64,000 nucleotides of DNA from Haloferacalesvirus Serpecor1 (IMGVR_UViG_2974801466_000001:10197-74196), one strand, 5' to 3'; shown: positions 37,124-61,112, counted from the stretch's first letter. Program-made: numbers and translations. The notes: generated by a model not told the origin, from the sequence alone.

Positions 37124-37208
37124 TTAATTTCCTGCTGGTGTTACTGCTAAGACTCGTCGGACTATGCTTAACTCTTTGTAAAAGACTCGGCGCTAAGTCT
37201 TCGAGTCT

Positions 37209-38387
37209 TTACGGCTGATACTGAACGTCGTAGAGCCACGTCAGCGGCAGAGAGTCAGAGACGCCGTGAATCGTCGCACCCGGCATCGACCACTCGCTGA
37301 TGGATTCCTCGAAGTCGCCCGGCGGCTTGATGGAACCGGAGCGAATCACGGGAACGTTCATCACGCGGTCAACGCCCTGCGTGTGGTAGTGCCCGGCGTA
37401 GGCAATCTCGAAGTTGTGCTGAAGGAGCCATCCTCTCCAATCTCGCTTCGCCGCCGCCGTCCCGATGTGTTCCGCCGCGTTCTGTCCGTGGCGGATGTGA
37501 GCGCGGTGTCCCCGAATCTCGAAGTTCGTGAACCCGGTGCGCTCGTTGCGGATGAAGGTGATGTTGTCGTACTCCGACGCCCGAACCACCGCATCGAGCA
37601 TCCGGTACACAATATCGTCGCCGTTCGCCTTCTGACTCGAACCGTTAATCCGAATCTCGCCGTGGTTGCCGGTCTGACACACGACCTGAACGGCGTCGAA
37701 GTTCTCCGCGAGCGTCCGAATCTGCTCGAAGTGGACTTGGGCCGCGAGGTCTACCTGCTCGTTGAAGTTCAGTTCGACCTCCCACGCCTGTCCCCAGTAG
37801 ATACCGGAGCCGGTGATAATGTCGCCGCCCATCACGTAGTGAACCGTGTGGAAGTCCCACCCGGCCTTCCGCTGGCGCTCAATCAGTTCGAGCGTCTTCT
37901 GCGTCCGGTAGCGAATCCGCTCAAGAGCGATTTCGGTGTTGAAGACCTCGTTCCCGAACTCGTCTTCGAGAACGTCGCCAATGTGGTCGTCCGTGACGTG
38001 AATCACCACGTCTTCCTCACCACCCTCGGAGAGCGGGACGGCGCTGATAGCGGGTTCCGTGTTGTTCAAGACTTTATCGAGGCGCTTCGAGAGCGACCCG
38101 GCGGCCTTGTTCAGCCGCTTCGTCTTCGTTGCCTTCGTGGTCGAACCGTACTCGCGGGTCTTGTTCTGGTTCGTGGGGTGTTCCTTCTCCGTGTCCCGCA
38201 TATACGCCTCGACCTTCCCCTCGATGCGTCTTTTCGCAAGGGGAGCGCCCTTGCGCTCGATACTGCTGATGTGGTCGCGGGCGGTAGACTCGGAGAAGCC
38301 AAACTCCTCGGAGAGCTGAGCGTAGCCAGCGGGCAGGTGGTCGATGATTTCCAGTTCAGTAGGTGTGAGGTTCTGTTCGTAGTTCAT
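37209..38387 (-). CDS. N-terminal wHTH fused to Mre11/SbcD-like calcineurin-type phosphoesterase, 392 aa
   Basis: Metallophosphatase motifs VIHVTDDHIGD, YVMGGDIITG, CQTGNHGE and YAGHYHTQG. N-terminal LTPTELEIIDHL...STARDHISSIERKG HTH-like segment. Confidence 0.75.
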   Translation of the reverse strand: MNYEQNLTPTELEIIDHLPAGYAQLSEEFGFSESTARDHISSIERKGAPLAKRRIEGKVEAYMRDTEKEHPTNQNKTREYGSTTKATKTKRLNKAAGSLSKRLDKVLNNTEPAISAVPLSEGGEEDVVIHVTDDHIGDVLEDEFGNEVFNTEIALERIRYRTQKTLELIERQRKAGWDFHTVHYVMGGDIITGSGIYWGQAWEVELNFNEQVDLAAQVHFEQIRTLAENFDAVQVVCQTGNHGEIRINGSSQKANGDDIVYRMLDAVVRASEYDNITFIRNERTGFTNFEIRGHRAHIRHGQNAAEHIGTAAAKRDWRGWLLQHNFEIAYAGHYHTQGVDRVMNVPVIRSGSIKPPGDFEESISEWSMPGATIHGVSDSLPLTWLYDVQYQP

Positions 38388-39622
38388 TGAGGTACGTATT
38401 CTTCGTCGTAGATTCGGCAGGATTCGTCCGAGCGGTCATTCATTCCGACACAGAACTCGCCGCCTGCGTCCCATACGTTCTGACAAACGAACGGGCCTTC
38501 GTAGCGAGAGATGAGGTCTTCAACCAGAGAGCGCGTCGTGGACTCGTTATACCCCTCGATGGGGCGAAAGAAGTTCACGATAACTTCGATTGGAACCTTC
38601 TTCTGAATCAGCTCCTTCATCACGTTAATCTCCATCACGCGGCTCTCAGAACCGTAGGAGTAGGAGTCGTCACGCTTGATGAACTCCATGATACAGGGCT
38701 TGTTAGCGACGAGAAGCGGAATGTCGCTGACCTTGATTCGGTCGTTCGATTCTTCCCGGTATTTCTTCACGGCTTTCGGGTCTTTGACCGACCCACGGCG
38801 CTCGCTGTACGTGCCTTCGCCACCGCTGGCGTTCCGCACTTCGAGGGCCACTTCCCGGCGTCCCGCCGCTGAAGGCGACCGTGCCTTGTGGGGAACGGGC
38901 CGGGGGCCGCTGGTAAGTTCGAGATAGTCGTCCGGGGTGAGGTCTACCAGTTCCTCGATTCCAACCGGGACACACCAACTCGTTTCCTCCCGGTGTTCAG
39001 CGCCGGGGTGGGGCGTGTTGGGATGCCGGACGAGTCGGGCGAGGTCGCTTGAGTCAACGTCAACCCACGGGTCGATGTTGATTCCACCAGCGATTTCGTC
39101 CAACTGCTCTATCATCTGGTTGCCGTACTTTTCGAGTCCACGCTTGAACTGAGTGTACGACCCGTTGGCTACGTCCACTTCCTCGAAGTCGAAGAATAGG
39201 TGGATTCCTTTGTGACCGGAGAGGGACGCTCGCCAATGCTGTTCTTTGCCGCCTTCGAGGATTGCCTCAGCGACCAACTGAACGCGAATCAGGAGGTCAC
39301 TCATCGAGCGTTTCCACGCATCGAGGGTTCGGTTCCGTTCGCGGTACTCGGAGTCAGCGGGAACGTCGAAGTCAATGAAGATAGTGTCTATCTTCGGGAT
39401 GTTGTCCCCGTCGTCCGTGTGACCCCGAGGGAAGGAGTAGGTGGATACGAACCCGTCCTTTCCTGCGCGACCGGCCTCAAGAAGACTGCTTACCAACTCT
39501 ACTCGATTGTTCGCCGGTTCCTGTATCCTAAACCGGGTGCTTACCCGACGTGGAGCGTCCGGCCCCACGTCGGGACACCACACTTTCGATGCTTCCCATA
39601 GAAGCTTCTCGTGATTTCCCAT
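38384..39622 (-). CDS. Archaeo-eukaryotic primase (AEP / PriS-like) superfamily protein, 412 aa
   Basis: Motif I IFIDFDVP, motif II SGHKGIHLFFDF, acidic motif III region. Confidence 0.65.
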   Translation of the reverse strand: MGNHEKLLWEASKVWCPDVGPDAPRRVSTRFRIQEPANNRVELVSSLLEAGRAGKDGFVSTYSFPRGHTDDGDNIPKIDTIFIDFDVPADSEYRERNRTLDAWKRSMSDLLIRVQLVAEAILEGGKEQHWRASLSGHKGIHLFFDFEEVDVANGSYTQFKRGLEKYGNQMIEQLDEIAGGINIDPWVDVDSSDLARLVRHPNTPHPGAEHREETSWCVPVGIEELVDLTPDDYLELTSGPRPVPHKARSPSAAGRREVALEVRNASGGEGTYSERRGSVKDPKAVKKYREESNDRIKVSDIPLLVANKPCIMEFIKRDDSYSYGSESRVMEINVMKELIQKKVPIEVIVNFFRPIEGYNESTTRSLVEDLISRYEGPFVCQNVWDAGGEFCVGMNDRSDESCRIYDEEYVPQ

Positions 39623-39637
39623 GTGTTTGAGTGGTCA

Positions 39638-39751
39638 TTAGGTACACCTCTCGGTGAAGCTCGTACAGCCCGCACTCTGACAGCCCGGACAGTATTCTGC
39701 TACGCCGCCGGTACTGGTTTCACAGCACCGGCACGTCCAGCGACCGTTCAT
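39638..39751 (-). CDS. 37-aa Cys-rich zinc-ribbon peptide (MNGRWTCRCCETSTGGVAEYCPGCQSAGCTSFTERCT)
   Basis: ATG overlaps the TGA stop of the upstream 498-aa gene (ATGA). Eight Cys residues. Confidence 0.35.
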   Translation of the reverse strand: MNGRWTCRCCETSTGGVAEYCPGCQSAGCTSFTERCT

Positions 39752-41244: not shown

Positions 41245-41321
41245 TGCGAGCGTAATTTCAGGAACCTATTTCATGGCCTAAGCTCGGGACTATACTACTT
41301 CATCGAGCGGGAGAACAGAGC

Positions 41322-41567: not shown

Positions 41568-41598
41568 CTTTAAGAGTTAGGGGTGCGTCTCCGAGTCT

Positions 41599-42552
41599 TT
41601 ACATCCGGTTCTCGATTTCCGCAACCACCGCATCGAGGTCGTAGTCGGCGTCACCGACTTCGCCGTTCACGAGCTGTTCGACGTTCTCCGGGTTCGTCTC
41701 GCCCGTGTTCGCCATGAAGTCGATAATCTGGTCGGCGGCCTGCGGGACACCCTCGGGAAGCCCCTCGTCGTCGGAGCCGTCGCCGCCGAGCGAACCACCG
41801 GAGTCACCGGAGGACTCGTCGGCGTCGTCGCTGTCACCGCCGCCGTTGTTGGCGATGGTGATACCGGCCAGCGTCTCGGCGTCGAGAACCTTCGCGTCCG
41901 TGTATTCCACGTAGTCGTCTTCGCTCTCCGCGTCGTCCGGCAGGAAGCCGTCCTTGTAGTAGGAGAGAATCACGCGGCGGCCTTCGAGGTCGTCTCGAAG
42001 TTCGAGAGCATCCTCGTTCAGCCAGTTGTAGTTGTCGTCCTTGTCGTCAACCACGTCGTGACCGGCGGGCGTGATGACCTTGGCGAAGGTGCGGTTCTTC
42101 GTCCCGTTGCTGAGCCACAGCGTACAGTTGCCGAGGCTCACCGGGTCGTCGCCCTCCTTCACCGCCTCGGAGAGTTTGTACGTGAAGTCGTTGCTACCGA
42201 ACTGCTCGTTGTGCCGGGAAGGAACGTCGTCGGCGTCCACATCCTCCGCAAGTGCGCCGTTGTCGTCGGTGGCGAACCAAGTGTCCCACCCGAAGACCTT
42301 GACCGTATCATCGTCCGGGTCGCCGGGCGACCGCTCCATCACGATTCCGTCGATTACCTCCACGTCGTCGGCGTCCACGATGAGGGACTGCCCGTAGGAC
42401 GACCCGGTGTATTCACCGAGACGACCAATCGTGAACGAGATGAAGGCGTAGTTGTTCATCTTGAGCGACAGGCGCTCCTCGAAGTCGCCGCCCGCGCCGC
42501 TGTTGCTGTTGTTGCTACCGCCGCTGTTGTAGTCGGTGTCGAAAAGGCTCAT
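41599..42552 (-). CDS. Hypothetical acidic protein with Gly/Ser/Asp-rich termini (SSB-like acidic tail?), 317 aa
   Basis: First gene of the leftward replication operon. C-terminal GGGDSDDADESSGDSGGSLGGDGSDDEG. Confidence 0.4.
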   Translation of the reverse strand: MSLFDTDYNSGGSNNSNSGAGGDFEERLSLKMNNYAFISFTIGRLGEYTGSSYGQSLIVDADDVEVIDGIVMERSPGDPDDDTVKVFGWDTWFATDDNGALAEDVDADDVPSRHNEQFGSNDFTYKLSEAVKEGDDPVSLGNCTLWLSNGTKNRTFAKVITPAGHDVVDDKDDNYNWLNEDALELRDDLEGRRVILSYYKDGFLPDDAESEDDYVEYTDAKVLDAETLAGITIANNGGGDSDDADESSGDSGGSLGGDGSDDEGLPEGVPQAADQIIDFMANTGETNPENVEQLVNGEVGDADYDLDAVVAEIENRM

Positions 42553-42883: not shown

Positions 42884-42934
42884 CCCCACTCTATTAGATG
42901 TGGGACTAAGACTTAAAGATACCTATATGAGTCT
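42884..42934 (-). promoter_or_regulatory. Promoter cassette copy 5 (leftward), drives tRNA-Asn
   Basis: cCCCACTCTATTAGATGtgggactaaGACTTAAAGATACCtatatGAGTCTTA. Confidence 0.55.
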
Positions 42935-43019
42935 TAGAAGTCGTCGGGAGGGATACCCCGCTCGATGAAGTTAGTAGCAAGTGGAGAACCACGACCGGGA
43001 GAGATAGACGTAGGAGACA

Positions 43020-43953: not shown

Positions 43954-43954
43954 C

Positions 43955-45009: not shown

Positions 45010-45063
45010 TCCTCACTCTATTAGACGCGATACTATGACTTAAAGATACCGCTTTGAGTCTTT
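45010..45063 (-). promoter_or_regulatory. Promoter cassette copy 6 (leftward), drives the tRNA-like/SPFH operon
   Basis: cCTCACTCTATTAGACGcgatactatGACTTAAAGATACCgcttTGAGTCTTT. Confidence 0.55.
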
Positions 45064-45119
45064 ACTCCGTGCTACTCAGATAGCAAAGACTTAAGCGAAG
45101 CAACTCCGTCTTTGTAGCT

Positions 45120-46205: not shown

Positions 46206-46262
46206 AAAGACTTAGAATCGGTATCTTTAAGTCCTTAGTTGCCGTCTATTAGAGTGAGGAGT
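46206..46262 (+). promoter_or_regulatory. Promoter cassette copy 7 (rightward), drives 46443..47383
   Basis: AAAGACTTAgaatcggtatcTTTAAGtccttagttgCCGTCTATTAGAGTGAGGAG. Confidence 0.55.
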
Positions 46263-50691: not shown

Positions 50692-50841
50692 TAGTCTAAG
50701 ACGCCGTGTTCATCGGGTTCATCCCCTCGTTCCCCTCCATCCAGTAGATAGGGAAGGGGTGAATCGGGAGTAACAATTCGCCCGGACATACCGAAGCTAA
50801 TTGCTCGGGGTTGATTGCCCGGTCTTTCGGAACGCACCGCC

Positions 50842-51108: not shown

Positions 51109-51506
51109 TATACAGTCACCTCAGCGGCGTGAGCCGGTCGGGTCGAATTGATGCGCCGAACGTCGAACACTTCCAGCATGATTGCCTTGTTGTTGTAGTC
51201 GGCTCGGGTGTACGCTTCGTAGAGGTCGCCGTCCCATAGCGCCGAGAAGAAGTGACCGCCGTAGTGGTCGAAATCCTCAGCGTTCTCCTCCGTCAGCGAC
51301 TCCCACTCGCGGGTGTATTTCTTGACCTCCACGAGAGCGGAGTTGCGGGTGACGGCCTTTCCGTCGCCGCGCTTCCTCTCCATCGAAGTCACGTCGAACG
51401 AGCAGACCTCGATGAGTCGTTCGTCAGCTCCGACCCACCGGAGTAGGCGTCGTTCGTGGTCGGTCAGGTCGGGCGTCGGGTCGGTGAAGTTGGTAAGTTC
51501 TGTCAT
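51108..51506 (-). CDS. Hypothetical protein, 132 aa
   Basis: ORF coupled to the downstream gene. Confidence 0.4.
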   Translation of the reverse strand: MTELTNFTDPTPDLTDHERRLLRWVGADERLIEVCSFDVTSMERKRGDGKAVTRNSALVEVKKYTREWESLTEENAEDFDHYGGHFFSALWDGDLYEAYTRADYNNKAIMLEVFDVRRINSTRPAHAAEVTV

Positions 51507-51556
51507 AGTTTTGTGTTCCTCTAAGACTCGGAGTGATAACTATAAGTCTTTATCGG

Positions 51557-53353
51557 TTATCGCCACGGTGCGGCTTCCGGGTCGCTCCAATGCTCCGGCG
51601 GTTCGTCCCGAATCGCCTCGGTGAACCATCCCGGCGGCTTCGTCCGGTTCATCAGCTTGTTGAACGCCCCGTCGATGACGTAGTACGACGCGGCTTCACT
51701 CGGTTCAGGGCCACGGACGGCTCGCCCCACGGACTGCTGAACGTCGAGGGAGGCCGACTCCATATACCACGTCCAGTCGTTCCGCTCATCGAGCAGGTAG
51801 GACACTCGACTGTCCCCGAGGTACGGGTAGGGAACCTTCAGGAGAACCTGCCAGCGGCAACGGTCGCCGTGGAGGTCAACTCCCTCCATCATCGACGGGG
51901 AGATGAGAATGTCCTTGTCGGAGTTAACCCACTCCTCAATCATCTCCACCTTGTCTTTCTCTTGGTCTTGAACGATAGCGTTCGCGCTCCCAAGAGACTC
52001 CCCAAGCTTCTCTGCTCGCTTGTAGGAGTTGGTGTGAATCAGCCCCTTCTCGCCTTTGTGGTGGCTGTTAATCTCGCGGATGGTGTTCACGACCTTGTTC
52101 CAGTTGCGTTCCTCTCCGTCGCCGCTCATCGAGCCGACGATAGTGTTCGTGTGAATCAGTCGGTGTTCCTCGGGGAACGGCATCGTCCGGCTAATGAGCT
52201 TCGTAGAACCTTCGAGGCCAATCCGGTCGGCCCACTCTGCGATGTTCTCCCGGTAGGGAATCGTAGCCGACGAGATAACGCGCTTCCGGCCACGGCTCCA
52301 AATGAACCGTTCGAGGAACTTGTCCACGTCAACGGGACTGACGACCATCTTCTTCTGCCCGGACTTCCCGAACTTGCTGACGGTGACAGTCCACGGTCGG
52401 TCTTCCTTCACCTCTTGGTGACAGTATTCGACCTTCTTGATGAAGTCCTTACATTGGTCAACCTCGGCCTGCCGGTTCGGGTCTTCGTCGTGGCGGTCAA
52501 CGAAGTTCGTCGCTCGGTCGTAGAGGCTGTTGAGGATGGGCGTAATGTCCTCGAACCGCTCGAAGTCCCACGAGATTCGGTCGCCCGTGTTCCGGTAGAC
52601 CTCGTTCGGGAGAACCCACGGCGAGATAGTGAACCCCGCGAACAACGAGGCGACTTGGCTTTCGAGGCCGTGTCCCTCGTCCACAATCACGAGGTCGCGG
52701 TCGTCAAAGGAAATCTGTTCTTCCTGAACGTCGTTCACCATTATCTTCGTTGGGAGGTAGTTGTCCACGACGAGCATTGCGAACGTGAGCGCCGCCATAT
52801 CGTCGCTCATCGCCCGGTCTTTCGCTCGCCAGTAGGTACATCCCGCAATCGTTCGGCAGGATTCTCCCTCCGTTTCGTCGGCCAGCGTACAGTCCTTACA
52901 GTTGTCGCCGCTGGCTCCGCAGATGTAGTCCTGCCGGGACTTGAGCATCGTGAGATACGCCTGAAGGTCTACGTCCTCGGCAAGCTGATTCCGAAGCTGT
53001 TTCTGAGGGGTCGTGTAGAAGGACTTGCCCGACTCGATGCCGTAAAGCTTGTAGTTGAAATGGTCTTCAAGACGACGCTTGTTCTTTGCGAGGTGAGAGA
53101 AAACGCGACCGAGAGTGACGTTGATAGGAGACTTGCCAATCCCGGTCGGCCCGTCGATTACGACGTTCGTGTGACCCTCGATGAACAGGGCTTCGAGAGC
53201 ATCCTTGAGGATTTCATCTTGGTACTCTCGGTAGCCGGGGAACGGGAACAGTTCGTCAGCGAGGTCGAAAAGGTACTCGCGGAGTCCGTCCCTGTTCTGT
53301 GAGTAGTTGGCTAACGGTTCGACTCTCTGGTTTTGTATTGCTGTTGTTGACAT
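51557..53353 (-). CDS. SF2 helicase of the XPD/Rad3/DinG type with 4-Cys FeS insertion, 598 aa
   Basis: Walker A GPTGIGKSP, 4-Cys cluster CGASGDNCKDCT...CRTIAGC between Walker A and B, DEGH box LVIVDEGHGLE, C-terminal helicase motifs (QSVGRAVRG). Confidence 0.7.
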   Translation of the reverse strand: MSTTAIQNQRVEPLANYSQNRDGLREYLFDLADELFPFPGYREYQDEILKDALEALFIEGHTNVVIDGPTGIGKSPINVTLGRVFSHLAKNKRRLEDHFNYKLYGIESGKSFYTTPQKQLRNQLAEDVDLQAYLTMLKSRQDYICGASGDNCKDCTLADETEGESCRTIAGCTYWRAKDRAMSDDMAALTFAMLVVDNYLPTKIMVNDVQEEQISFDDRDLVIVDEGHGLESQVASLFAGFTISPWVLPNEVYRNTGDRISWDFERFEDITPILNSLYDRATNFVDRHDEDPNRQAEVDQCKDFIKKVEYCHQEVKEDRPWTVTVSKFGKSGQKKMVVSPVDVDKFLERFIWSRGRKRVISSATIPYRENIAEWADRIGLEGSTKLISRTMPFPEEHRLIHTNTIVGSMSGDGEERNWNKVVNTIREINSHHKGEKGLIHTNSYKRAEKLGESLGSANAIVQDQEKDKVEMIEEWVNSDKDILISPSMMEGVDLHGDRCRWQVLLKVPYPYLGDSRVSYLLDERNDWTWYMESASLDVQQSVGRAVRGPEPSEAASYYVIDGAFNKLMNRTKPPGWFTEAIRDEPPEHWSDPEAAPWR

Positions 53354-53618
53354 TTCTTAGAAGGTTCTGGTCAGCTCGTCAATAGCCGGGGCGACCAACT
53401 CCCGACGACGCCCCACCGTAGGGCGTTTCGCCGTTATTCTCGCCACTCCCGCCGCTCTATGTCGATTATCTCAGACACGTCACGGCGGGGCTTCGTCTTT
53501 CCACGACGACGCCAACACGCCTTCCTCCGAAGGGAGTAGAAGTAGTCGTAGTCAGATTGCTCTATCTTCTCAATATCTTCTTCCATAATACCGTAGTGAC
53601 ACCGCAGGATGTTCGCCG

Positions 53619-53828
53619 CTATCGAGTCGTGTAGATTTCTTCGCCCCGTTCTCGGTCGTAGAGTGAGACAATCCCTCGATGGATGTGAACGCCGAGTTGA
53701 TACTCGGTTCCATCCGCCTCGAAGTCCATCTGGAACCAATCACCCTCTGTCTGAGTGTAGAAGGTGGAACGGTTCGGGATTGCGTCCAGAATATCCAGTA
53801 CGTCTCGGGCTTGTAGTTCGTTACTCAT
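53619..53828 (-). CDS. Hypothetical small protein, 69 aa
   Basis: ORF. Confidence 0.35.
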   Translation of the reverse strand: MSNELQARDVLDILDAIPNRSTFYTQTEGDWFQMDFEADGTEYQLGVHIHRGIVSLYDRERGEEIYTTR

Positions 53829-54126
53829 CTTCAGGTTCCTCGTTCGTGATTAGCAGTTCTTCTTCCGTCGCTGTTACCCACACCCACCCGTCTTCCTCGG
53901 TCGGCGTGACCGTCACGGCTTCCTCGTCACCTACCATCACTTCGAGGCCGCCGATACGAACTGAACCGGGCGGAGCTTCGTAGGTGGTTGTGTCGTCTCC
54001 CATATACGTCCCGAGAACACGAACCTTCTCGCCCTCTCGAAAGATACTGACGTGCTGGAAGGTTGCTTTTCCAGTTATCGTCCCGATTGTGTCGTCACCC
54101 ATTAACCGGGTCTTCCACCTCTCCAC
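53821..54126 (-). CDS. Hypothetical protein, 101 aa
   Basis: ORF. Confidence 0.35.
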   Translation of the reverse strand: MERWKTRLMGDDTIGTITGKATFQHVSIFREGEKVRVLGTYMGDDTTTYEAPPGSVRIGGLEVMVGDEEAVTVTPTEEDGWVWVTATEEELLITNEEPEDE

Positions 54127-54469
54127 CTATCAAGGCTTCCTCTGAGACGGCCTCGAACCAGAACTTCACACCAACTCCCTTCCCGGTGAGAGTAGAGAAG
54201 GCGAACTTGAATCCGAACTCCTCCATCGTCTTCCGCTCGCTGTTCATCACGAGGTGGGAACACGGGTCGCCACTACTGTCTACGTAGGGGTGGAACGGAA
54301 TCAGGAGCATCTGAACGTCCCCATCGTTCCCAATTCGGATGTGGCTCAGCTCACGGAACCGCTCGGGAAGCTCATCGAGGATTCGTTCTTCGAGAACATC
54401 GTAGTCCACTTCTTCGGTCGTCGGTTCTTCGGTGCTGGTGCTGTCGCTGGTGCTGGTGGTCGTACTCAT
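54095..54469 (-). CDS. Hypothetical acidic protein, 124 aa
   Basis: ORF. Confidence 0.35.
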   Translation of the reverse strand: MSTTTSTSDSTSTEEPTTEEVDYDVLEERILDELPERFRELSHIRIGNDGDVQMLLIPFHPYVDSSGDPCSHLVMNSERKTMEEFGFKFAFSTLTGKGVGVKFWFEAVSEEALIGGEVEDPVNG

Positions 54470-54476
54470 TTGAGGA

Positions 54477-55130
54477 TTACTCGCTGGTTTCTCGCTCTCG
54501 TTCTCGCCGGGCGCAGATGTTACTGAGGAACAGCTTGAGGGAATACTCGGGAATCTGTCGGTCGGCGTTCCGAACCGCGACTCGTGGGCTGATTACCTCG
54601 AACGGCTCACCGTCCGGGTCGTACATCCGCCACTCTCCTTGCCCGATTGATTCGAGAGTGTACGTCACCGGCTCTTTCGCAGATAGGTTGATGTAGTAGT
54701 CGTACTCGAACCGGACACCACCATCGTAGATGGGGCCTTCGAGCAGGTTTATCGCTTCACCGAGGTCTTCTCGTGTCTCCTCGATAAAGCGAACCCAATT
54801 GAGAACGTCGTTATACAACCCGGCGTGAGCAAGGTCGCTCACCGCATCTTGCTGGTCTTCCGGGTCGTCGTAGTACCGCTCGCCGCCTTCGTTATAGAAG
54901 CCATTATCGCAATGGTAGATGACACACCGCTGGTAATACTGAACCAGCTCGTGATTCTCCACGGCGGCTTCAACGATAGCCCACATCGGAACGTCGTCGG
55001 GAATCTCGTTGGGATTGAACGCAGAGCTTCGGATTTCCTCGGCTCCCTCCATCCCCCAATCGTAGTATTTCTTTGCCGTTGCCTGTACCTCGTTGTTGTA
55101 ACTCTCGAAGGAGTCGTATTTGTTTGTCAT
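54477..55130 (-). CDS. Hypothetical protein, 217 aa
   Basis: ORF. Confidence 0.45.
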   Translation of the reverse strand: MTNKYDSFESYNNEVQATAKKYYDWGMEGAEEIRSSAFNPNEIPDDVPMWAIVEAAVENHELVQYYQRCVIYHCDNGFYNEGGERYYDDPEDQQDAVSDLAHAGLYNDVLNWVRFIEETREDLGEAINLLEGPIYDGGVRFEYDYYINLSAKEPVTYTLESIGQGEWRMYDPDGEPFEVISPRVAVRNADRQIPEYSLKLFLSNICARRERERETSE

Positions 55131-55200
55131 AGGTGGTAGACCTCCGCTCCGATAATCGCCGCGAAAATTAACACCGCACAGAGAAATACAAGAAAGAGGC

Positions 55201-55683
55201 TCACGGTTTCAGCCCCGGAGTATCCACGTACAGCGGGCCGATTAGTTCGGCTACGTCGCTGAAGTTCTCCGGTTCCACGATGAAGCCCCGCCACGCGAGG
55301 CTGAACTTCCCGAGGTCGCGCTCTTTCAGCTCATCGTCAATCACTCGGCAGATGTGTTCGTTGTAGAGTCGGGGAACCACGAAGAACCCCTGAGGGAACT
55401 GCTTAATCTCGAACGTCGTCGGCTTCTCCTTCACCAGCGACCCCCACAAGTGGGACTTCTCCGGGTCGCTCCCGTGTTGGGACACCCACATCTGAGTCAC
55501 GAGGCTACGGTAGCGTTCGTGGAGGTGGAGAGCTTCGAGATTACTCGGTTCCATCAACACATCGAGGCTGTCTATCTCATCGAGGTGGTGCTTGAGGTCG
55601 TCCACCACGAGGGCCTTTGCGATGTTCTGGTTCAACTCCCTCATCGTCCCGTAGAGGGTGTCCGAAGCCCATCCATCCTCCAC
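55201..55683 (-). CDS. Hypothetical protein, 160 aa
   Basis: ORF. Confidence 0.4.
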   Translation of the reverse strand: MEDGWASDTLYGTMRELNQNIAKALVVDDLKHHLDEIDSLDVLMEPSNLEALHLHERYRSLVTQMWVSQHGSDPEKSHLWGSLVKEKPTTFEIKQFPQGFFVVPRLYNEHICRVIDDELKERDLGKFSLAWRGFIVEPENFSDVAELIGPLYVDTPGLKP

Positions 55684-55731
55684 GGTCTGTTCGATTGTCT
55701 CCGGGTCGAGAACGAACCGCCGGTAGTAGGC

Positions 55732-56049
55732 TCACACCGACCCACCGACCGACTCGTAATACTGCTCGATGCGTCCGAACTCCGTCTCCCACACCTTCGG
55801 GTCGTCGTTGGCGGCCTCGAAGTCGGGGCGGTTCTCGGAAATCGTCTTGCTCTTTCCGTTGAAGATTTCCCGAATCCAGAAGTCGTCGTGGAGAGGCTTC
55901 GGGTCGTCCGGGTCGGTTAGTTGGGCCGCCTTCCACACCGGGCTAACCGGGTCGTCGGGCTTCAGTCGGGTTGTCCCGACGTGTTTGTTCTTCTTTAGTT
56001 CGACCAGCGATTCTCCGGCCTTCGTCTCGATAGCAGTTGGAACGCTCAT
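55732..56049 (-). CDS. Hypothetical protein, 105 aa
   Basis: ORF; AAAGACTCAAA immediately precedes the ATG. Confidence 0.4.
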   Translation of the reverse strand: MSVPTAIETKAGESLVELKKNKHVGTTRLKPDDPVSPVWKAAQLTDPDDPKPLHDDFWIREIFNGKSKTISENRPDFEAANDDPKVWETEFGRIEQYYESVGGSV

Positions 56050-56065
56050 TTTGAGTCTTTAGGAG

Positions 56066-56338
56066 TTACCGAACCATTCGCCGCGCCGCCATTCCACCAA
56101 CGAACTTCTGGTGGTGCTGTCCACAGAGGATGAACCGCGCCGTGTCGTCCTCCGCAATCTGACTCCCCTGATACGGGCAGGGGTCGTCGTCGGTCGCTAC
56201 TTCTCGTCCGTGGTGACACATCTCGTCGCCGTGGTAGTGTTCAAAGTCAACCATTAGTGAGTCTCCGCGTAGTGTTGTTCGTGAGTCTTTGCGCTGAACA
56301 TCGGGAGCTTGTCCTGCCACCACCGCTTCCAAAGGCAA
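56066..56338 (-). CDS. Cys/His-rich small protein(s) (may be two coupled peptides: 56257..56430 zinc ribbon and 56066..56255 starting MVDFEHYHG)
   Basis: Table ORF plus an overlapping alternative-frame zinc-ribbon ORF (MEPHDNYPKNCPVCEST...) joined by TAATG. Confidence 0.25.
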   Translation of the reverse strand: MPLEAVVAGQAPDVQRKDSRTTLRGDSLMVDFEHYHGDEMCHHGREVATDDDPCPYQGSQIAEDDTARFILCGQHHQKFVGGMAARRMVR

Positions 56339-56711
56339 CGGAAGTTGCTACACCGGACGCCGTAGGAGCGTTCTTCGACGGTCGATTCACAGACAGGACA
56401 GTTCTTCGGGTAGTTATCGTGGGGTTCCATTACTGAGTCACCTCAATCACACAACTCCGGCAGAAGTATTCCTTCGAGGCTTCCCCGTCGTTCAAGGTCG
56501 CCAGCCGGTATTCACCGTCTTCTTTCACCACCGGAGCGCCGTTCAACCGAAGGCCGCCACACCGCTCACAGTTCACGGCCAAGTTCCTCCCAAGAACTCG
56601 ATGAAGCGGTCTTCGTTGTGGTCGTAGTAGCCCCGAATCTCTCGGTGACAGTCGTTACACCGCCACTTCGCTCGCTTTCCCCGACCGACCAGCCAGCGGC
56701 GGTCTTTATGC

Positions 56712-56981
56712 TCACACATTAATGGTAAGCTCCTGAATCTCGCTGGTTCGGAACGGCTTGCTCGGGTCTTGTCCCTGAACCGTGGACTCGATAACGACCT
56801 CCGCGACCTTCTCGTAAGGGTAGTCCTTGGCGTACACTCCGGCTTCTTCAAGCCTCGATGCGACTTCCCGCCGAGTTTCCAGCGGGAGCTTGTTTGGTCG
56901 GAGGTAGAACATATGTCCACCTCGGGAGTCGTTCTTCGGCCCTGCTCGAACGTCGTGGGTCTTGGTATGGGTTACACTCAT
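56712..56981 (-). CDS. Hypothetical protein, 89 aa
   Basis: ORF. Confidence 0.3.
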   Translation of the reverse strand: MSVTHTKTHDVRAGPKNDSRGGHMFYLRPNKLPLETRREVASRLEEAGVYAKDYPYEKVAEVVIESTVQGQDPSKPFRTSEIQELTINV

Positions 56982-57346
56982 CGGTTCTTGGGGTGGAAGA
57001 TGTGGTTCTCAGGGTAGTCCCGGTCAGCCGACCAGCCGAAGGACTTGAGCCAAACGCTCAGACAGCTCTCACAGAGGTAGACTGTCATATAGCCCCCGGC
57101 GAGTCCTCCGGTGTAGTCGCTCAGCACGCCTTTGTCTCGACCTCCCCGGTTACACTCCGGGCAATGGTTGTCGTGGTGGTATCCCTCGAAGTGAATCCCC
57201 GAAGGCATCGACCGGAAGGGGTTGTCGTCCGAAGCGTGAGGCATCTCGAAGACCTCCGTATCCACGCCCCACGTTTCCACGAGGGCTTCGCGGCGTTCGA
57301 TTCCGATTAACTCTCTATCACCGTCGTCGTTTGTTTCAACACTCAT
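56978..57346 (-). CDS. Zinc-ribbon protein, 122 aa
   Basis: HCPECNRG...CESC Cys pairs. Confidence 0.4.
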   Translation of the reverse strand: MSVETNDDGDRELIGIERREALVETWGVDTEVFEMPHASDDNPFRSMPSGIHFEGYHHDNHCPECNRGGRDKGVLSDYTGGLAGGYMTVYLCESCLSVWLKSFGWSADRDYPENHIFHPKNR

Positions 57347-57364
57347 TATTGTATCTCCGAGTCT

Positions 57365-58033
57365 TTAGACCGAACCAACCAGAGTCAGCTCGTCGTTCAG
57401 GTATTCCTCCTGAAACTCCATCTCGTCCTCCCAATCCTTCTGACAGTCCTCGCAGTAAGCGAAGGGGAAGCTCCGGCCCTTGACCTTCACAACGTGGTCG
57501 TGGTCACAGACCTCGTTCTGATACCGCGCTTCCTCCTCGCGGAGTTCGTCGATGCGCTCCTCGACGGCCCAATGAAGGCCATTTCGGATGGAATCCTCGA
57601 TTTCAGCCTCGTTGACGCCGTTCTCGTAAGCCTCTCGAATCTCCTTCGGGGTTGCCTCGACGGTGAACTCGACAGTCACCGTTCCCCACTTCTCCCCGGT
57701 GTATTCTTCACACCGGAGCTTCGAGCCGCCCCGAGAGCCGTGCTTCATCTCCCACTTCCCTCGGGAGTAGGGAACCACCTGCCAGTTCGGGGAGCAGGAA
57801 TACTTCGCCATCCCCTCGATGTGTCCCTTATGGTCGTAGGTCTTGAGGGTGACGTGGGGAAGCTTCACCCGGAGATGCTTCATATCCCTCGGGTACAGCT
57901 CGAACCAGCGACCCATCCAGCGGGCCTTCCGAACCCGCTTCCACGCTTCTTCGTCGTTAGCGTGGAATCGGTAGTGGTAGTCTCTGCCGTCCGGGTTTCC
58001 CATCCAGTCCTCGGGATAGTCTCTCCACGTCAT
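57365..58033 (-). CDS. Hypothetical protein with C-terminal Cys/His cluster, 222 aa
   Basis: CDHDH...CEDCQ Cys/His cluster. Confidence 0.45.
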   Translation of the reverse strand: MTWRDYPEDWMGNPDGRDYHYRFHANDEEAWKRVRKARWMGRWFELYPRDMKHLRVKLPHVTLKTYDHKGHIEGMAKYSCSPNWQVVPYSRGKWEMKHGSRGGSKLRCEEYTGEKWGTVTVEFTVEATPKEIREAYENGVNEAEIEDSIRNGLHWAVEERIDELREEEARYQNEVCDHDHVVKVKGRSFPFAYCEDCQKDWEDEMEFQEEYLNDELTLVGSV

Positions 58034-58148
58034 TCGTCGTCCTCCGGTAAGAGGTCGCCGTACTTCGTCTTGCTACGCTTGCTCTTTCGCTCGGCTTTCT
58101 CGATGTTGTCCTTCTCGTCGTCGGTGAGGGTATCTTCCAGAGTTGTCA

Positions 58149-58397
58149 TTAGTGTTCGACCTCCTCGATGGGGAGAATCAGCGGCTCGTTCTCGGTGTCA
58201 ATCGGGTCTTCCGACCAGAAGAACACACCAAACGTCTCCGAATCGTATTGGTGAACGTCGTATGCTTCGGTGTAGTTCTCCTCATCATCGAACGACTCAT
58301 CGAAGGTCGTGACTGCCTCAACATCCGACTCGGCAGTAACGATGATTTCGTAGCGGTACTCTCTCATCCCTTGGTCGCTGAGTCCTATTACTGACAT
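58149..58397 (-). CDS. Hypothetical acidic protein, 82 aa
   Basis: ORF flanked by unlisted about 36-47-aa acidic mini-ORFs at 58036..58152, 58400..58510, 58786..58929 and 59117..59260. Confidence 0.35.
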   Translation of the reverse strand: MSVIGLSDQGMREYRYEIIVTAESDVEAVTTFDESFDDEENYTEAYDVHQYDSETFGVFFWSEDPIDTENEPLILPIEEVEH

Positions 58398-58507
58398 TTC
58401 TCACTCCACGATGTAGTGGCCGTTCGGCGTTTCGTAGACCGTTCCGGGCTTCACGTAGTCGTCGTCTTCTGTCATTACCTCGTCAATCGCCATTTCGAGA
58501 ATGTTCA

Positions 58508-58786
58508 TTAGTATCCTGCCTCGTAGACCGCTTCAGCTTGCTCGAACTCCGATTCATCGGCGTCTGTGAATACCTCGATTTCCACTACGGAGCGAGGGTA
58601 TCCCTCGGTATCCACGATGAAGTTCTCGTAGACAATCCACCGCTCACCGAGTCCGAGGTCTTCTTCCAGCAACTCGGTCGCCGCGAAAATCGCATCGAGT
58701 TCGTTCTCCTCATCCACCGCATACTCTGCGGCGAAAACATCCAATCCAGCCTTCAACTCCTCGATGATGTGTTCTTCCAAGCTCAT
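58508..58786 (-). CDS. Hypothetical acidic protein, 92 aa
   Basis: ORF. Confidence 0.35.
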   Translation of the reverse strand: MSLEEHIIEELKAGLDVFAAEYAVDEENELDAIFAATELLEEDLGLGERWIVYENFIVDTEGYPRSVVEIEVFTDADESEFEQAEAVYEAGY

Positions 58787-58922
58787 CCCTTGATGATTTG
58801 GAGTCCACGGTTCGCTTCGAGGACGTGTTCCGCCGCTTCCTTCGAGGGGAACGACTCGATAATCTCGAATATCGCTTCCCCGTTGTCTATCACCGGCTCT
58901 GTCGGGTCGATTAGGTGGTATC

Positions 58923-59117
58923 TCATACTGTTAGGGCCTCAGGCTTCACTTCGTGGCTCGGCTCTCCCGTAGGAGCCATCGAGAGGGTCGGGCCTTCCGG
59001 TTCCTCGTTCACCACCATTACGGCTCCCGCCGCTGGTGGTTCGTCGTCGTCGCTTCCGTCCCTCGGTCGAATCTTCAGGAGAGGATTCGCGTTGCTTTCG
59101 TCGTCGTCGCCGCTCAT
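58923..59117 (-). CDS. Hypothetical small protein, 64 aa
   Basis: ORF. Confidence 0.3.
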   Translation of the reverse strand: MSGDDDESNANPLLKIRPRDGSDDDEPPAAGAVMVVNEEPEGPTLSMAPTGEPSHEVKPEALTV

Positions 59118-59260
59118 AGGTGAGCGACTTTCTCCATCGGGTCGTTGAAACCGTCCAGCTCGTCCATATCGAAGCCGGGAACGTCCCGGTCGTCGTAGCT
59201 TGCTTCGTCGTTCATCTCCGGGTCGTGGAAGTCAGGGTAGTAGTTGTCGTACATCGTTCT

Positions 59261-59617
59261 CTAAAGGGCGTTCAGGGCGTCTTCCAGCTCTCGGTCGAAC
59301 AGCGCCACCAGTTGCTCGATGGACTGTTCCTCTCGCTCGATTGCGTTGAAGGGCCTCCCGTCAACATCGTAGATGATGTAATCAGCCTCGGTCGGCTCAA
59401 TCGCAATCGAACCCCACTCGATTTGCTCGTCGTAGAACTTCGCTACGGAAGCTCGGCGGAGTCGGTACAGGTAGTCTCCGACCTTCAGTTCGAGGTCGGC
59501 TTCGCTTAGGTCGATACGTCGGTCGTCGGTTGGTGATTCTGCTACTGCCATCGGTGTCACTCGGTAGTATGGGCTACCGAAGGCTCTGCTACGGAGTCGA
59601 ACCGTAGTTACCGCCAC
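59261..59617 (-). CDS. Hypothetical acidic protein, 118 aa (start may be MAVAESPTDD at about 59551)
   Basis: ORF. Upstream leader carries the tRNA-like minihelix. Confidence 0.35.
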   Translation of the reverse strand: MAVTTVRLRSRAFGSPYYRVTPMAVAESPTDDRRIDLSEADLELKVGDYLYRLRRASVAKFYDEQIEWGSIAIEPTEADYIIYDVDGRPFNAIEREEQSIEQLVALFDRELEDALNAL

Positions 59618-59655
59618 TCAGAGCAAAGGGTTAAAGTTGCTTACTTGAGTCTTTA
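59563..59655 (-). promoter_or_regulatory. Paralogous leader A: AAAGACTCA, 11 nt, TTTAAC promoter, then tRNA-like minihelix (gctctg-[ctacgg-TTCGACT-ccgtag]-cagagc), then second hairpin, then GTGACACCgATG
   Basis: Minus-strand reading. Minihelix at 59583..59624, second hairpin at 59563..59578. Confidence 0.4.
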
Positions 59656-60072
59656 GGCCGGAGATAGTGCGACTTTCCTCCCGTTCCTCACGTCGGCATC
59701 GAGGTGAACGTGGTTGTGCTGAGTCTCGTTCTTCGTCCCGTCGTCTCGAAGCTCCACGTAGTCAGCGTCGGTTACTGTCCCGGTGTCGTATTCCATCGTG
59801 AAGGCTTCCCTCTCTCGAATCCACGAGAGACAGTCTCCGGTGTCCCACAGGTAGAACAGTCCAGCCTCAATCCGGTCGTCGGGGGCCTCGGAGTCTTCGC
59901 TTAGGTGAAGGACTGTCTCACCATACCCGTCGATGAGTTTGACCTCCCATTCTCCGTAAGCGTTCTTCCAGCTTTTGTACGTCTCGTAGCTCGGTATGTC
60001 GTGGTAGTCCATTATCAGAACCTCAGGTGTCCTTTGCGTCGGTCGGCTCTCTCGGCTCGTTCGAGGTCGCAA
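59653..60072 (-). CDS. Hypothetical protein, 139 aa
   Basis: ORF. Confidence 0.4.
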   Translation of the reverse strand: MRPRTSRESRPTQRTPEVLIMDYHDIPSYETYKSWKNAYGEWEVKLIDGYGETVLHLSEDSEAPDDRIEAGLFYLWDTGDCLSWIREREAFTMEYDTGTVTDADYVELRDDGTKNETQHNHVHLDADVRNGRKVALSPA

Positions 60073-60333
60073 TAGAAGCAGTTACAATCCGGGTTGAAGG
60101 AGTGTGGTCGCTTCATAGGCAATCGCTGTAACCACAGGCTTTACAGCCGAAGGCTGTCAGCGAAGCACCTCCGATGTGTGTTGGCTCATCCTCCCAATAC
60201 GATTCCTCTCCGGCTTCACAGTCGTCGTTGAAGTGGCACATTTGAGTTTAGTGGTTACTCACATCGAGTCGGTGTTACCTCCGAGAAGTTCCTCACTCTC
60301 AAAGACAACGTTTGAGTATTAAGTCTTTGCTGT

Positions 60334-60690
60334 TTACATCCAAGCTCCGGTGTAAGCCGCTCCCGACTTACTCCGAACCTTTCGCTCTCGCTTCTCTCGG
60401 CGGCTCTCTTGCTCTTTGAGCGTCTTGAGCTTCTTCCCGGTTCCCCAGTAAGTCGAAACGATATACTCGGTCTTCGGGTCAATCACTACCGTCATTACAG
60501 CTCCGCTCCATCTCGTTTCCAGCAGGACGTTTCCGCTATGTCCCTGAAAGGCGTCACCTTCCTCGATAGCTTGGTCTATCGCTTCCATCGGTATCCGTCG
60601 CTCTCGTCGCCGGTTCCCACCGTGGGAACGGGGATTGTAGTCGTAGCTCGATGCGTCTCGGCTGAATTGAATCTCGCTCATAGTTGTCAC
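60334..60690 (-). CDS. Hypothetical basic protein, 118 aa
   Basis: ORF. Confidence 0.35.
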   Translation of the reverse strand: MTTMSEIQFSRDASSYDYNPRSHGGNRRRERRIPMEAIDQAIEEGDAFQGHSGNVLLETRWSGAVMTVVIDPKTEYIVSTYWGTGKKLKTLKEQESRREKRERKVRSKSGAAYTGAWM

Positions 60691-61025
60691 TCGCTGTCGT
60701 GGTATTCGGAGTAGCGCCGCCGGTACTTCGCGGCCTTCTTCTTGGCCTCGATTTCCTCGTCAGTTAGGCCGGAGCCTTCGTATTCCTCAGGCTCCGACGT
60801 TTTCTCGTGATGGGGATGAATCTCACTTGGGTCGGGAGTCCATCCCATATACTCGGCCAGCTCCTCTCCTGTAAGGAGTTCTCCCTCGCGTCGTTCCTCA
60901 ACTACCGCTCCGAAGGCTCGATGCCTCTGGTCGATTTTGAGGTCGGCTCGGTGGCTCCATTGGTTTTGCTTCTCGCTGTCGGACTGGGTTACAGTCCCGA
61001 GTTTTGGCGAAAACATTGGTGTCAC
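60687..61025 (-). CDS. Hypothetical protein, 112 aa
   Basis: ORF. Confidence 0.4.
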   Translation of the reverse strand: MTPMFSPKLGTVTQSDSEKQNQWSHRADLKIDQRHRAFGAVVEERREGELLTGEELAEYMGWTPDPSEIHPHHEKTSEPEEYEGSGLTDEEIEAKKKAAKYRRRYSEYHDSE

Positions 61026-61028
61026 TTG

Positions 61029-61112
61029 CCAGTAGCTTACGCTACTGAGGCCCTTCCGGGGAGTCGAACCCCGGAGCCGCCGCTAAGGGTTAAAGTTGCT
61101 TAGATGAGTCTT
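61029..61112 (-). promoter_or_regulatory. Paralogous leader B: AAAGACTCA, 11 nt, TTTAAC promoter, then T-arm-like hairpin ccgggg-TTCGACT-ccccgg, then hairpin cagtagc-gtaa-gctactg, then GTGACACCaATG
   Basis: Same architecture and about 60% identity with leader A. Confidence 0.4.

Follow-up and report, generated by a model that had tools for sequence, protein, structure and literature searches.

The closest described counterparts of the element considered here are the intergenic repeats (IRs) of the archaeal virus HF2, which carry a motif termed alpha (Russ, Pfeiffer and Dyall-Smith 2021, Viruses 13:2388; PMC8707807); the IRs of Halorubrum virus Serpecor1 were compared in an earlier study (Dyall-Smith et al. 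2020, Genes 11:405). In HF2, bgaH reporter assays together with primer extension showed class I repeats to be promoters, with a transcription start site (TSS) 26 nt past the start of the TATA box (PMC8707807). When the alpha region of IR4 was subjected to scanning mutagenesis, promoter activity stayed the same in virus-free Haloferax volcanii, and the HF2 authors, who termed alpha "a common regulatory motif", proposed the involvement of virus-encoded factors (PMC8707807). An alpha-like 14-mer at an early promoter outside the IRs, T-4384, was reported in the same study (PMC8707807).

The sequence analyzed here (the window, 64 kb) corresponds to nt 10197-74196 of the Serpecor1 record MN901521.1, a myovirus of the HF1/HF2 group. 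The recurrent 9-mer to which the initial annotation drew attention is the alpha motif of HF1/HF2-type archaeal viruses, and as such is already published. It is an asymmetric, non-palindromic DNA word of 9-12 bp found in Haloferacalesvirus (HF1/HF2-group) genomes, with the consensus YAAAGACTYR. HF2 alpha, CTAAAGACTTAGAA, comes from the same virus genus, has the same sequence and occupies orthologous positions, and the order of elements (alpha, BRE, TATA or beta, TSS or gamma) is common to both viruses. No essential difference separates the Serpecor1 element from the HF2 IR system. The HF2 cloning primers for IRA, IRB, IRCc and IRPc begin at the motif; the last corresponds to a capsid-gene site (record nt 8242) outside the window. 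Beyond the HF2 paper, the present analysis adds the copies at 5038, 37202, 41592, 45085, 49971, 51543, 57358 and 62337, along with enrichment statistics, adjacency to stop codons and the observation that copies outside the IRs are better conserved than those within them. The sites in the window are as follows, class I repeats first.

19314-19322, minus strand: class I repeat; alpha AAAGACTCA, then 10 nt, TCTTTAAGTC and CGTCTaaTAGgG
19468-19476, plus strand: class I repeat; alpha variant TAAGACTTA, upstream of the ribonucleotide reductase gene
26559-26567, minus strand: class I-like repeat; alpha AAAGACTTA, HF2 IR4.5 orthologue, gamma replaced by an inverted repeat
29475-29483, minus strand: class I repeat; alpha AAAGACTTA, HF2 IR4 orthologue, PolB TAA stop embedded in the motif
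42928-42936, minus strand: class I repeat; alpha variant TAAGACTCA, HF2 IR3 orthologue, upstream of tRNA-Asn
45055-45063, minus strand: class I repeat; alpha AAAGACTCA, HF2 IR2 orthologue
46206-46214, plus strand: class I repeat; alpha AAAGACTTA (cAAAGACTTAGAA), HF2 IR1c orthologue, TATA spacing 11 nt
5038-5046, plus strand: AAAGACTCA; tail-sheath TAA stop embedded in gTAAAGACT, tail-tube ATG 21 nt on, late region
37202-37210, minus strand: AAAGACTCG; metallophosphatase stop codon embedded, 85-nt spacer
41592-41600, minus strand: AAAGACTCG; gene 380 stop embedded, 24 nt before the gene 375 ATG
45085-45093, plus strand: AAAGACTTA; ATG of CxxC gene 415 (plus strand) 26 nt further on, diverging from the 45055 repeat
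49971-49979, minus strand: AAAGACTCA; within the final codons of gene 475 (HTH/CxxC), 11 nt before the gene 470 ATG
51543-51551, minus strand: AAAGACTTA; 6 nt past the helicase stop codon, flanking an AT-rich box together with an inverted partner, cTAAGACTCG (51523-51530, plus strand)
56052-56060, minus strand: cTAAAGACTCA; 16-nt spacer, 2 nt before the gene 550 ATG, inside the cloned HF2 fragment IRDc
56282-56290, minus strand: AAAGACTCA; inside the coding sequence (CDS) of gene 560
57358-57366, minus strand: cTAAAGACTCG; gene 585 stop embedded, 11 nt before the gene 580 ATG
59646-59654, minus strand: cTAAAGACTCA; gene 630 stop embedded; orthologous to the HF2 14-mer CTAAAGACTTAGAA that precedes the mapped 5' end T-4384 (IRCc), opens a leader cassette of 106 nt (59549-59654)
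60320-60328, minus strand: gcAAAGACTTA; HF2 IRB orthologue, followed by gamma-like GAGAGTGAGG without a beta box
61105-61113, minus strand: gcAAAGACTCA; HF2 IRA orthologue, opens a 100-nt leader cassette (61014-61113, genes 655/650) in the region where the 12.7-kb early HF2 transcript F2 begins
62337-62345, minus strand: gAAAGACTCT; terminal non-coding DNA, gene 655 about 315 nt downstream

Further, poorly conserved copies are found in the 85-nt spacer of site 37202, at 37149 (plus), about 37182 (plus) and 37194 (minus).

The exact 9-mer TGAGTCTTT has nine matches in the window against 0.51 expected, a number reached in none of 100 shuffles, and the claim that it occurs far above chance is borne out. 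The figure of 12 or more sites between 37141 and 61112 holds only for the degenerate word, since exact matches in that range number six (45055, 49971, 56052, 56282, 59646 and 61105) and the remaining listed sites carry CGAGTCTTT or TAAGTCTTT, each with one mismatch. No listed site lacks the motif or a variant of it, but those at 49971 and 56282 lie inside annotated CDSs. The degenerate word AAAGACTYR has 19 matches in the window, 16 of which fall within intergenic DNA extended by 10 nt on either side (6.9 kb; 0.27 expected; at most four in 300 dinucleotide shuffles), an enrichment of about 60-fold, whereas the remaining 57 kb of coding DNA contain three (1.94 expected). An equal frequency in coding regions had been named as grounds for refutation; since the word is near expectation there and enriched between genes, the comparison does not refute the finding. 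Non-coding DNA makes up 9% of the window, and 18 of the 21 matches to the shorter AAAGACT touch it. This is the most over-represented 7-mer in intergenic DNA and is present in 15 different intergenic segments.

Orientation is similarly non-random. All conserved copies, and 19 of the 21 AAAGACT matches, are co-oriented with the downstream gene; one exception, 29462 (plus), is the complement of the beta box of an intergenic repeat, and the other, at about 37181 (plus), is not conserved in relatives. All 20 listed sites have alpha, (C)TAAAGACTYA at the 5' edge, and seven of the 20 are complete class I repeats, in which beta (TCTTTAAGTC, the TATA box) lies 10-11 nt downstream of alpha. CTTTAAGT is located at 19297, 26542, 29458, 42911 and 45038 on the minus strand and at 19486 and 46225 on the plus strand. 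The 13 other sites lack beta and are therefore alpha-only sites rather than class I repeats. Gamma (CGTCTNNTAGAG), which contains the TSS, is exact in four of the seven repeats, has one mismatch at 19314 (TAGgG) and at 42928 (CaTCT), and is replaced at 26559, as it is in HF2 IR4.5. Alignments of the loci place the repeats in positions and orientations orthologous to the annotated HF2 IR1c, IR2, IR3 and IR4, and putative promoter activity in Serpecor1 is extrapolated from these HF2 orthologues.

The distance from the motif to a TTTAAG or TTTAAC box, described in the initial annotation as quantized at 10-11 or 19 nt, is 10 nt at eight sites and 11 nt at one, and 9-10 nt at 5038. However, the second class measures 18 nt rather than 19 nt (37202 and 41592, the latter with a box directly adjoining the ATG), geometry varies elsewhere, and about half of the motif sites have no TATA-like box downstream. 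As the nine sites at 10-11 nt are the seven paralogous class I repeats and one pair of paralogous cassettes, paralogy accounts for most of the apparent quantization. Among relatives, the TTTAAC box at 59646 has diverged (TTCAAC, ATCAAC, TCCAAC, TCTAAC), whereas the motif is conserved; the box would fall at -20 to -15 of the HF2-mapped 5' end, and the motif occupies -39 to -31. Relative to the HF2-mapped TSS, the motif of class I repeats is at about -45 to -37, and elsewhere it occurs 2-36 nt before an ATG, so that the fixed distance to the TSS expected of a core element is not observed. Nor does it appear to be a required promoter element, given that alpha mutations in HF2 IR4 are neutral in Haloferax volcanii (PMC8707807). 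The broader description of an oriented, intergenic cis element linked to transcription stands, with seven copies preceding, by 10-11 nt, a TATA box for which transcriptional activity was demonstrated in the HF2 orthologues. Two cases had been placed 4-12 nt from the ATG; the gaps are in fact 2 nt (56052) and 11 nt (57358), and 49971 provides a third, at 11 nt. A possible operator role at these ATG-adjoining sites, as the initial annotation suggested, is a reasonable proposal. The tightest positional rule concerns the preceding gene: at no fewer than 13 sites, the motif overlaps the upstream stop codon or lies 0-7 nt past it, while the distance to the next ATG ranges from 2 to 232 nt.

Conservation across the genus was assessed at 12 non-repeat sites by comparison of Serpecor1 with HF2, HRTV-8, VOLN27B, HCTV-7 and HJTV-1. 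The motif is 96% identical, compared to 81% for the 20 nt upstream and 70% for the next 10 nt, and AAAGACT is invariant at ten of the 12 sites across the five related viruses. The copies at 41592, 45085, 49971, 56052 and 62337 are invariant in all six viruses, even though indels abut the motif at 41592 and 56052, and the copy at 59646 is retained although the flanking gene has been replaced. The copy at 56282 is altered in HRTV-8 and absent in VOLN27B, and for that reason is possibly a chance or coding copy.

It seems somewhat probable, on balance, that the motif is the recognition site of a sequence-specific regulator, probably outside the basal promoter. Alpha marks the upstream edge of intergenic regulatory modules, namely the class I promoter repeats (seven), the early-region cassettes with structured leaders (two) and some ten other gene junctions. 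In such a model, a DNA-binding regulator, whether virus-encoded or a host factor, would recognize it and modulate the host RNA polymerase in the early, middle and late programme. Both the binding of a protein and the regulation of transcription by that binding are inferred. Neutral alpha mutations in a virus-free host would be expected if the site needs a factor missing there, but a non-functional element would give the same result. Operator-typical layouts are seen in the inverted pair around the AT-rich box (51523/51543) and in the cluster of copies at 37149-37210. Because positions relative to start sites and ATGs are heterogeneous, activation or repression cannot be read from the geometry. 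A search for the binding protein identified none; candidates are the early HTH/CxxC protein 475, the winged-helix protein 220 beside the integrase and protein 355 (HTH N-terminus), for which the HTH and winged-helix labels are those of the record annotation and Pfam matches are weak, below curated cut-offs.

It is quite unlikely that TBP and TFB (possibly a particular host paralogue) use the motif itself as a BRE/TATA-like site, with initiation about 25 nt downstream. At 5038, 41592, 45085 and the capsid-gene site (record nt 8242), it lies 21-26 nt before the ATG, the place expected of a TATA box for a leaderless or short-leader mRNA; at 60320 its 3' half (CTTAATAC) is about 26 nt before the gamma-like initiator; and beta, the proven TATA box, contains TTTAAGTC, the reverse complement of GACTTAAA in alpha. 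However, in class I repeats the mapped start is served by the TATA box of beta and mutation of alpha is neutral (PMC8707807), the position at T-4384 is -39 to -31, a start 25 nt downstream would be intragenic at 56052, 57358 and 49971, and the fixed G, C and T in AAGACTC are unusual for a TATA box. The motif resembles archaeal BRE/TATA elements in being A-rich and oriented, with four sites placed as for leaderless mRNA, but differs in its variable distance to mapped starts and in being dispensable for HF2 IR4 promoter activity. Set against recognition by a DNA-binding regulator, the proximity to stop codons may indicate a function tied to the upstream gene end or to RNA. An RNA-level signal, in which AAAGACUYA in polycistronic transcripts would serve processing, protein binding or translation coupling where the upstream cistron ends, is nevertheless distinctly improbable. 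It would fit the strict co-orientation with transcription, the closer tie to the preceding stop codon than to the next ATG, the structured, tRNA-like leader elements that follow two copies, and the 13-35 kb primary transcripts of HF2, which are apparently processed to RNAs of 0.5-9 kb (PMC8707807). Yet the copy at 45085 (plus) and the divergent-region repeats at 19468 and 46206 have no co-oriented upstream gene, so transcription of the motif is not a necessity; neither complementarity nor a structure that includes it was found, and stop-codon proximity is accounted for equally well by compaction of the genome up to whichever functional element comes first in the spacer.

That the motif has no function of its own, being a remnant of duplicated repeats, a "boundary" homology at mosaic junctions or a restriction/methylation target (GAGTC), is highly improbable. 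Paralogous 58-bp repeats do account for seven copies and paralogous cassettes for two more, the sites at 59646, 51543 and 41592 coincide with mosaic breakpoints between viruses, and alpha mutations were neutral in the reporter assay (PMC8707807). Against this, about ten copies share only the 9-12-mer with the repeats and yet are the best conserved (96% versus 70-81% in the flanks), and homologous recombination requires more than 9-12 bp. Genome-wide, GAGTC and GACTC show mild depletion (100 and 99 occurrences, where about 139 would be expected) and no strand asymmetry, unlike the strongly strand-biased long motif. A special case of regulator binding, rather unlikely and proposed by analogy, is a single viral repressor that would act on about 20 oriented sites to block both initiation and elongation in the early/middle arm, in the manner of the repressor of L5 and other cluster A mycobacteriophages. 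Mycobacteriophage L5 has more than 20 asymmetric sites, oriented according to transcription, in its promoters and in short gaps between genes, and the motif distribution follows the same logic as these stoperators (PMC9283540). There are about 22 asymmetric motif sites, with every conserved copy co-oriented with transcription, and copies are found in promoters (class I repeats) and short gaps, including the 16-18-nt junctions at 56052 and 57358 and the overlaps with stop codons. Also found are an integrase, attP and a winged-helix gene beside the integrase, and alpha is dispensable for basal promoter activity (PMC8707807). On the other hand, HF2 is lytic on its laboratory host (PMC8707807), the class I motif lies upstream of BRE/TATA rather than over it, and HF2 transcripts F1 and F2 run through motif copies in lytic growth. 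The read-through is not decisive, because little or no repressor would be expected during lytic growth.

Recognition by a regulator has parallels in both archaea and phages. Haloarchaeal upstream activating sequences (UAS) adjoin the BRE, as in the GvpE-responsive gvp promoters and the Bat-dependent bop promoter, and archaeal activators act from directly upstream of the BRE. The class I motif is likewise just upstream of the BRE (about -45 to -37) and dispensable for basal transcription, but it differs from the UAS in sequence and in having no known activator, and many copies are not beside a TATA box. The stoperators of cluster A mycobacteriophages (L5 gp71 and relatives) are similar in copy number (about 20), in consisting of one short asymmetric site and in an orientation locked to transcription. 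The likeness is one of analogy only, not homology, as the transcription machinery is archaeal in one case and bacterial in the other, and a 13-mer with a known monomeric repressor in the phages compares with a 9-12-mer without a known binder in Serpecor1. It is unlikely that a single viral repressor or anti-terminator controls both initiation and elongation across the early/middle arm of an archaeal tailed virus through about 20 oriented YAAAGACTYR copies, those in the 16-18-nt junctions and over stop codons among them; if it did, this would be the first stoperator-like system acting on archaeal RNA polymerase.

The repeated element of Halorubrum virus Serpecor1 is a short oriented word, the alpha motif (degenerate form AAAGACTYR), whose invariant core in the direction of transcription is AAAGACT. 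Serpecor1 is a myovirus of the HF1/HF2 group (genus Haloferacalesvirus, family Hafunaviridae), and megablast matches window 49000-62000 to its record MN901521.1 at 100%. The core occurs 21 times in the window, and 18 of these copies are in contact with non-coding DNA as split by the record annotation, in which genes cover 91% of the window and 5.7 kb is non-coding (window positions are record positions minus 10196, by direct sequence comparison). The exact 9-mer TGAGTCTTT is present nine times in the window against 0.51 expected, a count reached by none of 100 shuffles, and allowing one mismatch raises the number to 32, where 14.5 would be expected. When intergenic DNA with 10 nt on either side (6.9 kb) and the coding remainder are shuffled separately with dinucleotides kept, AAAGACTYR is found 16 times in the former against 0.27 expected (maximum 4 in 300 shuffles) and three times in the latter against 1.94. 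AAAGACT is the most over-represented 7-mer in intergenic DNA, where it occupies 15 separate spacers, and a frequency matrix from 20 sites reads Y-[A/T]-AAGACT-[C/T]-[A/G], with an A-rich stretch after it.

The initial annotation had reported a 9-mer recurring at 12 or more intergenic sites between 37141 and 61112. The excess is borne out by the shuffled controls and, since the word is not equally frequent in coding DNA, the element is real; the observation is significant and its details are partly right. The listed sites do carry the motif or a variant, but exact copies in that range number just six, the rest reading CGAGTCTTT or TAAGTCTTT. Placement is mostly intergenic, although the copies at 49971 and 56282 lie within annotated CDSs, and the range is too narrow, with further copies at 5038, 19314, 19468, 26559, 29475 and 62337. 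Copies are also present ahead of the window, for example cTAAAGACTTA at record nt 8241-8250, 21 nt before the major capsid protein ATG and equivalent to the HF2 fragment IRPc. In the late arm the motif stands ahead of two abundant structural genes, those for the capsid and the tail tube.

The element has been published before, as the alpha motif of intergenic repeats in HF1/HF2, and its detection here is mainly a rediscovery. Seven copies form the 5' element of 58-bp class I repeats, the promoter-bearing repeats known from HF1/HF2 and studied by Russ, Pfeiffer and Dyall-Smith (PMC8707807), with the layout alpha AAAGACTYA, a 10-11 nt spacer, beta TCTTTAAGTC, 9 nt and gamma CGTCTNNTAGAG. The HF2 repeats IR1c, IR2, IR3 and IR4 align with window positions 46206, 45055, 42928 and 29475, respectively, and the Serpecor1 repeats were compared with those of HF2 earlier, in Figure S3 of the virus description (PMC7230728). 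Every class I repeat showed promoter activity with a bgaH reporter, with transcription starting at a G in gamma, 26 nt past the start of the beta TATA box, and with a BRE at -33 to -37 (PMC8707807); with a 10-nt spacer, the 9-mer would lie at about -45 to -37. The proposed association with promoters stands in part, as class I repeats drive transcription in HF2, but alpha is dispensable for basal promoter activity in a host without viral proteins (IR4 mutagenesis, PMC8707807). A second intergenic word, CTCGATG, was set aside because coding DNA is also rich in it; an extended form, CTCGATG(T/A)RGTRA, occurs in long spacers with class I repeats (19647, 26398, 41301, 42961, 46341 and 60262).

The non-repeat copies are likewise not new in substance. 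The supplementary primer table of the HF2 study (PMC8707807) allows the cloned HF2 fragments to be matched to sites as follows.

HF2 cloned fragments and corresponding alpha motif sites
IRA, HF2 from 2880: forward primer starts GCAAAGACTCATCTG; window 61105
IRB, HF2 from 3666: forward primer starts GTAAAGACTTAATAC; window 60320
IRCc, HF2 from 4343: forward primer starts CTAAAGACTTAGAACG; window 59646
IRDc, HF2 7941-8001: fragment includes the motif and ends at ATGAGCGTTCC; window 56052
IRPc, HF2 from 69431: forward primer starts CTAAAGACTTAATC; capsid-gene site, outside the window

The HF2 14-mer at 4343-4356, which precedes a mapped early transcript end at G 4384 (T-4384), is orthologous to site 59646. 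The 12.7-kb early transcript F2 starts between genes 005 and 010 (RT-PCR table, PMC8707807), an interval that corresponds to the IRA spacer (window 61017-61119). Site 60320 (IRB; 60242-60333, minus strand) resembles a class I repeat without the beta/TATA box; a gamma-like AGAGTGAGG follows 20 nt after alpha, which puts the 3' half of alpha (CTTAATAC) in the expected place of the TATA box.

The downstream gene is co-oriented with 19 of the 21 copies, the exceptions being 29462, which is the complement of a beta box, and 37181. The spacings originally assigned to a TTTAAG, TTTAAC or TTAAAG box are less secure. A distance of 10-11 nt to TTTAAG/TTTAAC is indeed seen in the seven class I repeats and in the leader cassettes starting at 59646 and 61105, but these are two paralogous families and not nine independent cases, and the box at 59646 (TTTAAC) differs in the relatives and would fall at -20 to -15 of the HF2-mapped end. 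The supposed 19-nt class measures 18 nt, at 37202 and 41592, and at 41592 the box abuts the ATG, too close to serve as that gene's TATA box. Copies close to an ATG, also noted at the outset, are upheld: three conserved ones (49971, 56052 and 57358) end 2-11 nt ahead of the ATG, which leaves no room for a promoter. The tightest positional regularity is with the upstream gene. Its TAA stop codon is embedded in TAAAGACT in six cases and lies 6-7 nt upstream in seven more, and this proximity is kept even where the spacer is 50-246 nt; the distance to the next ATG runs from 2 to 232 nt. Two copies are followed by the junction AATAATGAGTGTT (a stop, then a start reading Met-Ser-Val) at 49957-49969 and 57344-57356 on the minus strand, and a similar ATGAGCGTT follows copy 56052; these could represent a paralogous junction or a common translation-start context.

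Homologous regions of HF2, HRTV-8, VOLN27B, HCTV-7 and HJTV-1 were aligned with Serpecor1 at each site. At 12 non-repeat sites, identity to Serpecor1 is 96% in the 9-mer, 81% in the 20 nt upstream and 70% in the 10 nt downstream, and AAAGACT is unchanged across all six viruses at ten of them. The motif at 59646 is kept despite a replaced upstream gene in HRTV-8 and VOLN27B, as are those at 41592 and 56052 despite abutting indels. Conservation is less strict within class I repeats, where alpha is 90% conserved with variants such as TAAGAATCA and AAAGAGTTA. The coding copy at 56282 is not conserved among the relatives and may be a chance occurrence. An IMG/VR search with protein 625 returned just HF2 itself, so these figures are based on five GenBank relatives of about 86-92% identity. 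In the sister genus, the 44-kb HRTV-7 (Mincapvirus) has eight AAGACTYR copies, with no class I repeat found and no deeper footprint; the motif is essentially genus-specific.

Two copies head paralogous early-gene leader cassettes on the minus strand, at 59549-59654 and 61014-61113. In both, 10 nt separate the motif from TTTAAC. Next comes a tRNA-like element, made up of an outer stem, the linker AGYGGCGG and a T-arm-like hairpin whose 6-bp stem carries the invariant 7-nt loop TTCGACT; it is followed by a second hairpin and then AGTGACACCNATG. The T-arm shows three compensatory pairs between the two paralogues (Alifold), and in cassette C all six viruses keep the outer stem base-paired, with double substitutions in it on two independent occasions. 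Single-sequence folds agree on both hairpins but give the outer stem in cassette C alone, with modest z-scores (-1.4 and -2.5). The HF2 end T-4384 maps 4 nt downstream of this outer stem's 5' strand and could therefore reflect processing within a tRNA-like element instead of transcription initiation. An Rfam scan of the whole window finds a tRNA, an attP tRNA-like element and a type II hammerhead ribozyme, and none for the motif or the leader cassettes. The ribozyme (RF02276, 39.1 bits; 53366-53433, minus strand), between the helicase gene and gene 515, is already in the record annotation. At 63606-63958, short G-rich tandem repeats (GAGACGGGGA x5.7, CGGGA x11, CCGGGG x4.5) adjoin and extend into the 320-bp genome terminal repeat.

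A site recognised autonomously by a protein, rather than a core-promoter element of fixed geometry, seems with somewhat better than even confidence to fit the data best. The motif would then be the first functional element of each spacer, bound by a putative DNA-binding protein. This reading is favoured by the strong site-specific conservation, by a strand asymmetry locked to transcription, by the intact basal activity without alpha where viral proteins are absent, and by inverted pairs around an AT-rich box (51523/51543) together with the cluster at 37149-37210. The pair at 51523-51551, upstream of gene 500, comprises AAAGACTTA, 13 AT-rich nt including TTATAG, and GAGTCTTAG, and three of the five relatives retain it. 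The cluster occupies the 85-nt spacer that follows the metallophosphatase gene; its four copies are spread over both strands, and just 37202 is conserved. A search for a palindromic half-site found inverted partners in these two spacers and no others, and the relatives do not share the one at 37181. Candidate binders might include the early HTH/CxxC protein 475, the winged-helix protein 220 beside the integrase, and protein 355 with its HTH N-terminus; Pfam scans of these three and of the three genes behind the ATG-proximal copies gave sub-threshold HTH/MarR/PadR matches or none, so the candidates are named tentatively.

A BRE/TATA-like role would suit the position of four sites 21-26 nt ahead of an ATG, and of 60320, but is contradicted by the mapped starts and by the IR4 mutagenesis. 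An RNA-level signal at cistron ends would account for the proximity to stop codons and would suit the processing known for long transcripts, but copies lacking a co-oriented gene upstream contradict it. A further alternative is that the copies are non-functional, mark recombination junctions or are methylation targets. Restriction or methylation at GAGTC or GANTC was rejected, as GANTC is at expectation and GAGTC and GACTC show a mild, strand-symmetric depletion. The latter two number 100 and 99 in the whole window against about 139 expected (first-order Markov), each about 28% rarer, which may reflect mild avoidance of a restriction site.

What the analysis adds to the published motif is its occurrence beyond class I repeats as the genome's most enriched intergenic word, its stricter conservation outside those repeats, its proximity to upstream stop codons and its presence in junctions too short for a promoter. 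This distribution supplies a concrete target sequence for finding a regulator of temporal expression in haloarchaeal tailed viruses. What remains of value is the longer list of sites and what may be the most interesting form of protein recognition, a network of operator- or stoperator-like sites, suggested here by analogy only. The operator/stoperator sites of cluster A mycobacteriophages (PMC9283540) are a close parallel to the distribution seen here, with about 20 copies in one orientation at promoters and in very short junctions.
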